64,000 nt of DNA from Sphyrna mokarran. Its lineage: Eukaryota. The stretch covers positions 56,358,001 through 56,422,000 of the forward strand of contig JAGIQG010000010.1 in assembly GCA_024679065.1 (NCBI GenBank), given 5' to 3'. Below, in pieces: positions 3,862 to 55,459 of the stretch. The notes under the pieces were generated by a model, which was not told where the DNA came from, did no database searches, and saw only the letters and a program-made list of their open reading frames with translations. Numbering within the stretch: position 1 is the first letter of the stretch; every line of letters starts with the position of its first letter. The translations under genes and the position numbers were made by a program.

Positions 3862-5332
3862 ATAAGAACATAAGAACTAGAAGTGGGAGTAAGCCATCTA
3901 TCCCCTTGAGCCTGCTCTGCCACTCAATAGATTCAAGGCGGATCTTTTTGTGGTCCCAGCTCCACTTACCCGCCCATTCATCATAACCCTTAATCCTTTA
4001 CTATTCAAAAATTTATTTATCCTTTCCTTAAAAACATTTAATGAGGTGGCCTCAACTGCTTCACTGGGCAGGGAATTCCATAGATTCACAACTCTTTGTG
4101 TGAAGAAGTTCCTCCTCAACTTAGTCCTAAATTTATTTCCCCTTATTTTCAGGCTTTGCCCTCTCATTCTAGTTTCACCCGCTAGTGGAAACAACTTCCC
4201 TGCTTTTATTTTATCTATTCCCTTCATAATCTTATGCTTCTATAACATTTCCCCTCATTCCCCTGAATTCCAATGAGTATAGCCCCAGTCTACTCAGTCT
4301 CTGCCATAAGCCAACCCTGTAAGAATTTAGCAACACCAATTTTAAATCCAACCGATTTATTTGATAGTAAAATTGTGAGCTTTCAACACTCTGTGTCTTT
4401 GTCAGGCAAATGCAGTGTTCTGGTCTGCAATAGCACACATCAGCACAGACAGTCACAGATTGCTGAGTAGAATGCGAATCCTTACATCTAACCTGCTATT
4501 CAAGTGTTAAAGTGGCTAACAATGTGTGTGAAGGAAATCCTGAGCATTGGTTAGAGAATTGTGTATTTTCTCCAGACAACACAGTAAGTGAGGTTTTTTG
4601 CTAATCCAGGCAAGTTACGGGGGTTACAGATAGTGTGACATGAAGCCAAGATCCCTATTAAGACCGTCCTCATGTGTGCGGAACTTGGCTATCAGTCTCT
4701 GCTCAGCGACTCTGCGCTGTCGTGTGTCACGAAGGCCCCCTCGAAGAACATTTACCCGCAGGTCGGAGGCCAAATGCCATGACTGCTGAAGTGTTCGCCC
4801 ACAGGAAGGGAACTGTTTTGCCTGGTGAGCGATGCTCATTCATCCGCTGTCGTAGCGTCTGCATGGTCTCTCCAATGTACCATGCTTCGGGACATCCTTT
4901 CTTGCAATGTATTAGGTAGACTACGTTGGCCGAGTTGCAAGAGTATGTACTCTTGCCAACCCTCCCAACCCTGGAATCAACCTAGTGAATCTCCTCTGCA
5001 CCCTTTCCAGTGCCAGTATATTCTTTCTCAAGTAAGGAGATCAAAACTGTACACTTCTCCAGGTATGGCCTCACCAGAACCTTTTACAGCTGCAACATAA
5101 TCTCACTGTTTTTAAACTCCATCCCTCTAGCAATGAAGGACAAAATTCCATTTGCTTTCTTAATTACCTGCAAACCAACTTCTTGAGATTCCTGCACAAG
5201 GATACCCAGGTCCCTCTGCACAGCAGCATGTTGCAATTTTTTACCATTTAAATAATAGTCCATTTTGTTGTTATTCCTACCAAAATGGATGACCTCACAT
5301 TTACCAACATTGTACTCCATCTGCCAGAACCT
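3862..5332 (-). mobile_element. CR1/HER1 LINE 3' portion (RT C-terminal region), split by a Penelope insertion
   Basis: ORFs 5084-5320 (WQMEYNVGKCEVIHFG) and 3898-4227 (RRNFFTQRVVNLWNSLP); (ataagaac)n tail. Confidence 0.93.
4319..4954 (-). mobile_element. Penelope-like element (Neptune type), 5'-truncated: GIY-YIG endonuclease C-terminus plus 3' pseudo-LTR
   Basis: Minus strand reads SCNSANVVYLIHCKKGCPEAWYIGETMQTLRQRMNEHRS and RRVAEQRLIAKFRTHEDGLNRDLGFMSHYL*; flanked by TSD gccaaccct (4310-4318 / 4955-4963). Confidence 0.92.
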
Positions 5333-5737
5333 TTATGATCTACACTATCCAAAAGAACAAGGTCAACAGGCTACTGTCTATAAGTTCCCCTCCAAGTCAT
5401 ATACAATTTATGACTTGGAGGGGAACTAAATCACCATTTCTTCACTATTGTGGAGTCCAGGGCCTTAATAGGTTTAGTAAAAGAGATAATAGATCTAACA
5501 CTCTGCATTAGAGTAAAATCACATCTTAGTCAAATCCTATATCTCAAGGATTTGAGATCAACAGAACTCCCCAAGGTTGTTTGCTTGTTAGAAAAGCAGA
5601 TAGTTCCCAGCTAGAAGATTATACACAAGTTTAATAATAAACCTACGAAGGCAAGATCGGAATTTTAAAATAATGTTCTGTGTACTGATTAACTGTGGAC
5701 TATTTCTGTGACTTGGAGAAGAGAGTTGCATTATAAT

Positions 5738-6070: not shown

Positions 6071-7973
6071 AATGCTGTCCCTGTAATTGCCTTGATAGAA
6101 TTGTGAGAACTGCACTAGGCAGGAGTATTACTTCGGAAGTTTCTCTGGAATAGTCCAGTCCATACTTGACTCATGAATAAACGATAGTTACCCTATCCCT
6201 GAGTCTTCTGCAGTTAGCTGAAAGAAGTACACCATGACACTCTCTAATATAACTTTGGTTGTACCTGGATAGCAATAACTCAAGAAACTGTCTCCTCAGA
6301 CTATGCTGCAGTAGTGAGAGATATGGCATGTGAACCGATGCCTGAAATAACTCTAAAATTATTGTGGAATAATACATAGCAATATAACATACAATTTATC
6401 TAAAACATGGGGGGGCAAATCTCCTATCGCAACATGCACATATTTTGGCGGGTCGGGAGATGCACATGTTAACCATTTTTCAGGTTCCTCGCAAGCATCT
6501 ATGACCTGTGCGCATCACTCAACTGGAAAAAATGGCATGGCCGGAATGATGCTGAAAATTGGCATGCCGCAGATTTTCATTACTTATCATACAGCATGCC
6601 ATTATTGGGATCAATGCAGCAATCTTCACCTATATTAGCATCTCCCACCTCTTTGGCGTGATGTCGCTTTGGTATATAAAAGTCTGAACATGGCATGGCA
6701 GGAGGTAAGTGCTGCTAGTGGAGCATGGTGGATGTTGCAGGCAGGCCCTGGAGATGCTTGGTGAGGTTTTTCCTGCTGCCTTCAAGTTCTGGCCCATGGA
6801 CCAGTAATATCTGGGATGGGGTGTGCTTCTGTTTCCTTTGACCTCTCTAGGGTAAGGTTTCGTGAAGGAGTCTTGCTGAGCCCTGTCCTCCAGGGCAGCA
6901 CTGTGGCTTAGTTTGGGAGGCTCCTCAAGGAGTCCTGCTCAGCCTTCCTTCAAGTGCACTTTGTAGTGGTATTGTCATACTGTGGGGTGTAATCAGAGAC
7001 TGCGCTGAGTGCTGGTGGTCAGGGATTCAACTGACTATTGGTATTCCAGAGTGGGGGAGGAGTGCACCATATGCTAACTAAGGCCTAATCAGATGAAGCA
7101 GCTGCCGCTCCAGGCTGGGCTACAGAGGTTCAGATATGGACTGCATGGCATCTGCTGTCACTGGGTACGTATCTGGTGTTGAGATGTAGTCTGAGCCTGC
7201 CCTATAACATTGGACCAGCAAACATGCCAGTAATGGATGCTGCAGTTGCACACATGGCAATGGCTCAAGTGCATATTGCCCACGACTGCACACTGACTTT
7301 CATGATCTGTGCCAGCATTTGTCATGGTGGGAATCTCACGCAACCTGATTGGATCATACATGGCAATATGGATTGTGTACTGTTGCCAGCTCTCAAAAGT
7401 GGGGAGTATTGGCTCAAATGAGGGATGGGGTGGTGCTGGGTTTGTGCAGCCAATGATAATAATCCGTCATTCTATGCTCTTCCGAAACCCCACTGTGAAA
7501 ACGGATCTCGGTTTGCTCGATCTGGAGCTAACCATGTTGGTAGCAGCAGGGCAGAAGAGGAGGAGGAGGCAGCAGCTCAGAAAGCGGTAGACATGAAGAG
7601 ACCACCGCAGGAGCAACCATTATCAGTCCTTCAGGAAGGAGGACAGGGGGCTGCTGCTGAGGGCCAGGAGATGGGTGATCAGTGTTGCACAGAAGGCTGA
7701 GGGTGCCGCGGCCAAGGAGGTACAGACCCCACAATTCATTCAAGGCCCTCTTGGAGGAGATGTGCCATTGCCAGCCGTGGCTCTCCGAGACCACAGTGTG
7801 GCACCTATGTGAGGTACTTGCACATTTGGCACATCGGGATGAACGGCCATCCGCTCTCTGTAGACATGAAGGTTACGGCTGCCCTATATTTTTACATCTC
7901 TGGCTCATTTCAGGCAAACTCAGTAAAGTTTTACAACACCAATTTTAAATCCAACCAATTTATTTGATAGTAA

Positions 7974-8013
7974 ATTCACGAGCTTTCGACTTTATAGCCT
8001 TCGTCAGGCAAAT
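7974..8013 (-). ncRNA. Minimal type-I hammerhead ribozyme motif (PLE-associated), mirror copy
   Basis: Reverse complement reads atttgc-CTGACGA-a-ggct.ataa.agtc-GAA-AGCT-C-gtgaat. Confidence 0.6.
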
Positions 8014-8113
8014 GCAGTGTTCTGGTCTGCAATAGCACTCATATCCACACAGTCAGTTACAGATCTGTAACTGTCTGTGTGGATATGAGTGCTATTGCAG
8101 ACCAGAACACTGC

Positions 8114-8153
8114 ATTTGCCTGACGAAGGCTATAAAGTCGAAAGCTCGCGGAT
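8114..8153 (+). ncRNA. Minimal type-I hammerhead ribozyme motif (PLE-associated)
   Basis: atttgc-CTGACGA-a-ggct.ataa.agtc-GAA-AGCT-C-gcggat: conserved core, stem II, palindromic AGCT stem III, stem I with G-U pairs. Confidence 0.65.
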
Positions 8154-8339
8154 TTACTATCAAATAAATTGGTTGGATTTAAAATTGGTGTTGTAAAACT
8201 TTACTGAGTTTACCCCAGTCCAATGCCAGCATCTCTACATCATTTCAGGTACCCAGTGGCGACCTAGTTGGGATCTCCCAGGCTTCCATGTACAAATGTG
8301 TGCGGCAGGTCACAGATGCCCTGTATGCCCCAGCTGTCA

Positions 8340-8942: not shown

Positions 8943-9364
8943 CTTTGTGGCATGACTGGCTGTGTGCCCAATCCTGCAGCTTATGTGCAGCTCTTGCTTA
9001 TTAATGGAGTTCAGATCAGTGAGTGTGGCCAGTCAACACATTTGTTGGCAACAAATCCTTGTGAGAAATTCTGAGCGTCATGCATTCCTCCGGGTGCTGA
9101 TTGACTGCCATTCAATAAGAGGAGGTTCAATACTTAGGGTTCCTAATCGATTAGCTGACGTCTCTAGGTGAGGGTGCTAAATCAGGGCTCCCATTCATGA
9201 GAGGAAATGCTCACAAGCTGGCCTTGTACATATCAGTATTACACAAGTTCTCTGAAGGGCAGCACTGAAGACAGTATATTCAAGGGATGGGGTATTTGGA
9301 TCCATGCGGGCATGGGATGAGTAGGCAGCCATATCTATGTATGTGGGGGGTGAAGGGGGTCAAC

Positions 9365-10020
9365 ATTGTCTGTATTGTGGGAGCAAGGGCAGCAATGTCT
9401 ATGTGAAGGGGGCTAGCGATGTCTATATGGGGGGGGGCAGTGATGTCTTATGAGGGGGTGCAGCGATTTTTGTATGGGGGCAGCGATGTCTGCATGGGGG
9501 GTGGCAGCGATGTCTGTATGGGGGAGGAGACAGCAATGTCTGTATGGGGGGGCAGCAATGTCTGTTGGGGGGTGTTGCAGTGATGTCTGTAGGGGGGCAG
9601 CGATGTCTGTATGGGGGGGGCAGCGATGTCTGTATGGTGGGGGGGGCACCGATGCCTGTATGGAGTGCAGCAAAGTCTGTATGGGGGGGAGCCCCGATAT
9701 CTGTATGGGGGGAGGCATCAATGTCTGTATGGGAGGGGCAGCGATGTCTGTAAGGGGGGGGGCACTGATGCCTATATGGGGTGCAGCAATGTCTGTATGG
9801 GGGGGGGTGCCTAGATGTTTGTATGGGGAGGGCAGTGATGTCTGTATGGGAAGGGCAGTGATGTTTGTATGGGAAGAGCAGAGATGTCTGTGTGGAGCGT
9901 AGCAATATCTGTATGGGTGGGGTGGTTGTGGGTCCAGTGATGAAGCCAGTAATGTACTGGCATGTTTGTGGGGACTAGTGATAAGGCCAGTGATGTCTGT
10001 GAGGGTTGGATGGCAATGAT
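9365..10020 (+). repeat. G-rich minisatellite, ~21-23-bp unit (cagcgatgtctgtatgggggggg), roughly 28 copies
   Basis: Directly visible tandem units; source of the spurious repetitive ORFs at 9413-9905. Confidence 0.95.
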
Positions 10021-54509: not shown

Positions 54510-55434
54510 CATAGAACATAGAACATAGAACATTACAGCACAGAACAGGCCCTTCAGCCTTCAATGTTGCGCCGACCAATATAAAAAGCAATGCCCCTCC
54601 AAACTAAACCATTCCCTTCTCTTCCATATACTTATCAACTAACCTCTTAAACGCCACCAAACTTGGCGCATCTACAACTGCTGCAGGCAGGGCATTCCAC
54701 TCCCGAACCACCCTTTGGGTAAAGAACCTACCTCTGATATCCGTCCTATAACTATCACCCCTTAATTTAAAGCTGTGTCCCCTCGTGCTAGCTTTTTCCA
54801 TCCTAGGAAAAAGGCTATCACTGTCCACCCTATCTAAACCTCTAATCATCTTATATGTTTCGATCAGGTCCCCTCTTAGCCTCCTCCTTTCTAACGAAAA
54901 CAACCTCAAATCCCTCAGCCTCTCCTCATAAGACCTGCCCTCCATACCAGGCAACATCCTGGTAAACCTCCTCTGTACCCTCTCCAATGCCTCCACATCT
55001 TTCTTATAATGTGGGGACCAGAACTGCACACAATACTCCAAGTGCGGCCGCACTAGAGTTTTGTACAGTTGCAACATGACGTTGCGGCTCCGAAATTCAA
55101 TCCCCCTACCAATAAAAGCTAAGACTCCATATGCCTTCCTAACAACCTTCTCGACCTGACTGCCTACTTTCAGGGATCTATGCACATACACACCAAGATC
55201 CCTCTGTTCATCTAGACTATTAAGAATCCTACCATTTGCCCTATACTCTACACATTTATTATTTCTGCCATAGTGCATTACCTCACACTTTTCCACATTA
55301 AACTCCATTTGCCACCTCTCGGCCCAGCTCTGCAACTTGTCCAAGTCCCTCTGCAAACTATAACACCCCTCTTCACTATCTACCACTCCACCGACTTTAG
55401 TGTCATCTGCAAATTTACTAATCCATCCTTCAAT
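54510..55434 (-). mobile_element. Young 5'-truncated CR1/HER1 LINE with an uninterrupted 260-aa ORF2 C-terminus (54604-55386)
   Basis: Near-identical to 35620-36553; (catagaa)n tail. Confidence 0.97.
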
Positions 55435-55459
55435 GGATGGATTAGTAAATTAGTAAACA

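Follow-up and report, generated by a model that had tools for sequence, protein, structure and literature searches.

The palindrome at positions 7905..8249 of the window (the whole 64,000-nucleotide stretch of Sphyrna mokarran DNA analysed here) is a single 5′-truncated and 5′-inverted insertion of a Penelope-like element (PLE) with reverse transcriptase (RT) and GIY-YIG domains, for which the likely route is priming from both ends of the cut target with the two cDNAs joined head to head. The hairpin is the short end of a continuum of head-to-head spacings in its family, and the family statistics favour two-end priming over a single cDNA that snaps back by itself. With no ORF, and with hammerhead motifs predicted to be buried in the 148-bp stem, the product is a dead end; the locus is decayed debris within another dead transposon.

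Two head-to-head PLE ends within one target site duplication

The two arms (7916-8063 and 8064-8211) are 148-bp reverse complements with 3 mismatches (pairs 8053/8074, 7978/8149 and 7976/8151) and a spacer of 0, and they reach 151 nt if a fourth mismatch is allowed. An earlier note on this DNA had described such arms, with about 3 mismatches and no spacer, followed by a PLE tail of about 28 nt, and the analysis bears this out. The left arm is an inverted, tailless, 5′-truncated PLE 3′ end, or pLTR (7915..8063, minus strand), whose outer end lies 28-32 nt short of the element end. It meets the direct 5′-truncated PLE 3′ end (pLTR; 8064..8211, plus strand) at an unstranded zero-loop junction (8061..8066) that lies 183 nt from the element end; its middle 2 nt are self-complementary and common to both arms. 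The tail is attached to the right arm alone (8212..8243, plus strand) and stops at what is the ORF start codon in a tandem unit. Beyond the right arm come 28 bases and then, at 8240-8249, the 10-mer of 7905-7914 again.

We take these 10-mers to be the left (7905..7914) and right (8240..8249) target site duplications, both read on the plus strand. The final 2 nt of the left repeat are also compatible with the inverted arm, and the right repeat has its first 4 nt in common with the tail. In the partial tandem L097 the tail runs up to the start codon of the ORF, which makes those 4 nt element sequence too, and the duplication, earlier given as 10 bp, is therefore 6-10 nt with microhomology. The 10-mer is present once in paralogous transposase copies, where the empty site could be aligned across in 9 of 11 loci at 74-82% identity. 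Bounded by this duplication, the structure stands as one insertion event, as the earlier note had proposed. Our search of the window found no second long palindrome of this kind.

Duplication of a solo PLE stub into a palindrome after insertion, whether by break repair or by replication slippage, would account for the near-identity of the arms. We nevertheless regard it as very unlikely, given that the duplication encloses both arms, that the flank is nowhere inverted and that the left arm ends within the cluster of second start sites described below. An assembly artefact derived from a fold-back read is harder still to credit. Among the contigs of four runs, which are mostly other copies of the PLE family, none spans the hairpin centre, as an artefact would predict; against this, the left junction is crossed free of error by one contig, which reaches 26 nt into the arm (below the 31-nt bar), the arms differ at 3 sites, the target site duplication brackets the unit, and hundreds of similar structures have duplications of their own.

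Divergence between the arms is 2.0% in the window (3/148) and about 2.4-2.7% elsewhere (91/3,601 in 30 short hairpins; 312/12,913 in asymmetric pairs). The earlier suggestion that low divergence reflects youth or arm-to-arm conversion is not supported by this comparison: the window value is typical of other pairs, and so there is no sign of conversion.

The target is a decayed transposase copy (7015..8335, plus strand; approximate bounds), in which removal of the insert restores a reading frame. A Pfam search of the target pieces of the window gave no match. Paralog L116 does match DDE_Tnp_4 (E 2.7e-7), a domain that we take to be that of Harbinger/IS5-type transposases, and agrees with the window piece at 20 of 31 amino acids; it is by way of this paralog that the target is probably Harbinger-type, in line with the earlier identification. 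The target upstream of the duplication also shows extra likeness to the tail (family D15).

The parent element

The right arm plus tail match over all 176 nt, at 98-100% identity, in the 40 loci scored out of 1,234 candidates, and upstream of the matched 3′ ends lies an ORF that encodes RT and GIY-YIG motifs as well as a linker rich in cysteine. Pieces of locus L022 that are colinear with the arm match RVT_1 (E 2.6e-6; 27.7 bits against a cut-off of 29.6, for a fragment) and GIY-YIG (E 2.4e-5, above cut-off), and the translation has a cysteine cluster upstream of GIY-YIG, a Zn-finger-like motif between RT and endonuclease (EN). The available text of one survey assigns such an RT-EN motif to the Neptune clade and also to Nematis (PMC8557442); the cysteine-rich linker in the translated sequence of the family is of this Neptune/Nematis type. 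Locus L097 is a partial tandem consisting of a 456-nt pLTR followed by a unit of ~3.03 kb. Three 18-mers taken from the element end have 2,865 (younger subfamilies), 14,051 and 16,638 exact matches in the genome. The hairpin arm and tail are thus the 3′ end of an RT + GIY-YIG PLE with more than 14,000 end copies, and the proposed Penelope origin, including the match of the arms to PLE termini, is supported. The family has the traits of EN+ PLEs: RT followed by a C-terminal GIY-YIG domain, a pLTR tandem, an optional 30-40 bp tail at one end, an inverted 5′-truncated copy at the 5′ end and a pLTR that holds a hammerhead motif. The window has one more copy of the family at 4313-4950 (minus strand), 653 nt long, tailless and 32 nt short of the end; it belongs to another subfamily, with 83% identity to the hairpin arm and 91% to the L097 unit.

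Hammerhead motifs

Each arm contains a minimal type I hammerhead motif, at 7974..8013 on the minus strand in the left arm (predicted cut after 7980) and at 8114..8153 on the plus strand in the right arm (predicted cut after 8147), together with an AATAAA (7959..7964, minus strand; 8163..8168, plus strand). Our descriptor matched the core boxes, stems I and II and a palindromic helix III remnant on both arms and, with the coordinates, confirms the two opposed motifs and outward-pointing AATAAA signals reported earlier. On sequence grounds, the hammerhead of each arm is of the minimal, dimer type. An Rfam scan of the region returned no hammerhead at E<=1, and the microRNA matches that it did return were rejected as hairpin-driven artefacts below their own thresholds. 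Among 165 hammerhead motifs in the fetched loci, stem II has at least 3 bp in 151 and stem I at least 5 of 6 pairs in 142; stem II varies in sequence yet pairs, a pattern consistent with the fold being under selection in the parent family.

Minimal type I hammerheads are described from metazoan PLE pLTRs, where two motifs may lie on opposite strands at a distance of 100-700 bp, in the accessible part of PMC4209133. The window motifs share with them the conserved core, the unpaired nucleotide before stem II and the palindromic helix III remnant, and differ in having a stem II of 4 bp and a stem I of 6 bp with wobbles. Unlike the pairs in that part of the paper, the two window motifs are exact mirror images that base-pair with each other. 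Whichever strand is transcribed, the antisense arm precedes the ribozyme in the RNA, and the ribozyme-competent fold (stems I and II forced) is calculated to cost 66-68 kcal/mol relative to the hairpin. The hammerheads are accordingly modelled as sequestered in the 148-bp stem, and self-cleavage is predicted to be blocked in the hairpin.

An unlikely reading: the hairpin as a mobile unit

The earlier note had also entertained a non-autonomous, viroid- or retrozyme-like hairpin unit, one that would be transcribed, cleave itself and reinsert whole. Although the core motifs are intact on both arms, we find this highly improbable. A genome-wide exact search with the 20-nt centre returned 2 loci, the second of which (L032) has 6 differing subfamily sites common to both its arms and a tandem junction; two exact centres in different subfamilies do not make a mobile family, and the idea of one built on the window centre was rejected. 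When loops of up to 30 nt were allowed, 15 hairpins were found in the fold zone of the window, with varied centres. One short centre, the commonest, does recur, at 22 loci, as a mobile unit might. These loci differ in stem II variant, of which there are many, in tail side, which can be either, and in arm length (18-119 nt), so this centre too was rejected as a mobile family and is better seen as a recurrent junction. The motifs themselves argue in the same direction, being opposed, one per strand, and predicted to be sequestered. Non-LTR retrozymes, according to the portion of bioRxiv 10.64898/2026.07.22.740005 available, are tandem units with same-sense hammerheads; like the window hairpin they are short, non-coding and pLTR-related, with a type I hammerhead. 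They are tandem direct repeats, whereas the window holds a single inverted pair with a target site duplication and without sister copies, and two or more tandem same-sense hammerhead units are not found there.

A further point in favour of a mobile hairpin comes from L213 and L214 (also labelled L105/L106), which have a complex centre and 229 bases in common but lie within different target site duplications. They lie on contig C1 at 73.39 Mb and 79.09 Mb, 5.7 Mb apart, with the tail on opposite arms, and a search that tolerated up to 1 mismatch found their junction at just these 2 loci. The pair may have arisen by ectopic conversion, from an intermediate common to both, or from a hairpin that was recopied in a rare event.

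Head-to-head insertions across the family

The origin of the window hairpin is best judged against other insertions of the family. We sampled the 79 loci behind the first 100 matches on contig C1, a sample confined to one contig in which younger subfamilies are over-represented; we scored arm reach and solo class manually from the BLAST alignments. It comprises 36 head-to-head insertions, 40 solos and 3 loci set aside (L097, L165 and L207), and those 100 matches include 20 head-to-head pairs, 22 to 3,388 nt apart. Near-zero-loop head-to-head insertions number in the hundreds, with varied centres. Element ends are bimodal, with 63 at 0-2 nt from the tail end, 54 at 26-39 nt and 3 elsewhere. Both ends are used by solos (21 tailed and 19 tailless, by reading of BLAST output), solos of both kinds carry target site duplications, and 12 of the 15 tailless solos tested have a candidate one; for these reasons the tailless end probably serves as an independent priming site, as in the anole PLE studied in vitro (see below).

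Almost every inverted insertion combines a tailed with a tailless end. Among 30 short hairpins, 29 have one tail, 1 has two and none is tailless on both arms (binomial p 8e-9 for the 0 on 29, with L110 dropped). This pattern bears directly on the main alternative, in which one tail-primed cDNA ran 183 nt, folded back, copied itself to within ~30 nt of its start and jumped to the other target end. We think this possible for the window hairpin but unlikely. It was the origin favoured in the earlier note, as a snap-back product of PLE reverse transcription, and that part of the idea stands insofar as such products do occur in the family: fold-back accounts simply for both window arms stopping at the same base, for the enrichment of symmetric fold points and for the subfamily variants that the arms have in common, and it has left direct signatures at L037, L110, L220 and L222, while the junctions of L032, L079 and L086 are folded back more than once. 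What it does not provide is the one-tail pattern. About half of the hairpins would be expected to be doubly tailless, against 0 of 30 here and 1 full case among the 22 loci of the recurrent centre; in that set 3 have no tail, namely L233, both arms of which are full, and the pair L220 and L222, in which a tailless arm is joined to a return arm of 18-30 nt. Nor does it explain why the return arm should end where tailless solos begin, or why the tailless arm is the longer one in 12 of 36 inversions (the tailed arm is longer in 14). In addition, established steric limits would keep a loop of 0-2 nt from forming directly.

Two further sets of loci are of note. L037 carries a tail on each arm together with ~40 nt of flank in inverted orientation, and is a case of fold-back synthesis running into target DNA. 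At L032, L079, L086, L099 and L111 the head-to-head junctions consist of short element pieces, in tandem or in alternating inverted order, which suggests that the template was switched several times.

Arm lengths agree within 30 nt in 10 of the 36 inversions, against 1.8 expected by shuffling (0 of 50,000 shuffles reach 10). Arms disagree at 9% of diagnostic sites in symmetric pairs and 13% in asymmetric pairs, compared with mostly 20-40% between loci. At L093, L179, L198 and L200 the arms are as unlike as random copies, so that one RNA is not the rule.

A model with two priming ends

We therefore return to priming from both target ends, which would proceed as follows. A staggered cut of the target would leave two ends that both prime reverse transcription, the right one at the tail site, presumably aided by the 4 nt of microhomology, and the left one at a second start site ~30 nt upstream. 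Both cDNAs would probably be copied from the same RNA and stop 183 nt from the element end, to be joined through the 2-nt self-complementary overlap or by one folding back and landing on the other; snap-back may thus also form the junction within two-site events. The junction sequence in the window fits end joining and snap-back alike, and no intermediate has been observed. Given the snap-back products at L233, L220, L222 and L037, both routes operate in the family.

Folds are concentrated in a hot zone. We counted 227 near-zero-loop folds just upstream of the hammerhead (14,051 copies) and 44 at a site ~54 nt further upstream (16,638 copies), an odds ratio of 6.2 that is approximate because the probe lengths differ. 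The window fold, 183 nt from the element end, lies ~35-40 nt upstream of the hot zone, where the rate is 15 per 2,865. Of 30 arms inspected visually, a small number, 4 have their end no more than ~15 nt upstream of the probe. More tentatively, and with somewhat less than even confidence, we propose that the head-to-head insertions record the in vivo action of a PLE enzyme that works as a dimer and primes both cut ends at two start sites of one RNA, with the hot zone marking the 5′ end of a pLTR transcript (strong-stop). If dimeric two-site priming is true, the one-tail rule and the excess of equal arms follow; if the strong-stop reading is true, the window hairpin is a clean co-termination product ~35-40 nt upstream of the hot zone. 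A short self-complementary motif within the hot zone may, however, be just as good an explanation of it as a transcript start.

Comparison with known systems

The layout of inverted pLTR, one tail and target site duplication is already published for PLEs, and the window hairpin is an ordinary example. The accessible text of PMC3846280 describes Pen2a/Pen2 of Adineta vaga with an inverted pLTR, a 31-bp tail at one end, duplications of 9-10 bp and palindromes at the inverted junction, and proposes self-priming for inverted PLE junctions; the scheme of inverted pLTR plus tail is treated as general for the PLE class in the part of PMC8557442 available, and inverted PLE ends also appear in sections of PMC8969392 and PMC2377424. 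With Pen2a/Pen2 as described there, the window hairpin shares the head-to-head pLTR, the tail of ~30 nt on one arm, the 9-10 bp duplication, the palindromic inverted junction and a tail running into the ORF start. It differs in that both copies are cut to only 150-180 nt, with no ORF and no spacer, and for that reason the insert is one hairpin throughout.

The purified PLE protein of anole Poseidon cuts and extends both strands, is predicted to dimerise and uses two reverse-transcription start sites bounding the tail, as far as the available text of PMC11167929 goes. The window family likewise has two probable start sites bounding the tail. In Poseidon the tail ends inside the ORF, and inversions are not studied in that text; in the window family the tail ends at the start codon and there is a cysteine-rich linker. 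The in vitro reactions described show no homology between cut DNA and start site, compared with a 4 nt match in the window (PMC11167929).

The closest analogy outside PLEs is LINE-1 twin priming, in which both target ends prime and a 5′ inversion results, as proposed here. L1 inversions cover adjacent RNA segments, whereas the window arms cover the same segment twice. Twin priming is named in the accessible part of bioRxiv 10.1101/2024.12.14.628481.

Our literature search, which was thin on subscription journals, found no paper with such counts of PLE inversions. The genome holds thousands of head-to-head junctions, and the one-tail rule, the equal arms and the hot zone are counts that can be tested in vitro. 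They bear on how PLEs build their inverted ends, a question raised in the available portions of PMC8557442 and PMC11167929.

Other features of the window

Two perfect inverted repeats, one of 19 bp with a 7-nt loop (5383-5427) and one of 17 bp with a 6-nt loop (about 55412-55451), have no match to the PLE unit. A G-rich minisatellite with a unit of ~23-24 nt and ~25 copies occupies about 9350-10020, and a fragment at 5084-5332 (minus strand) reads like what we presume to be the end of a CR1-type LINE ORF.
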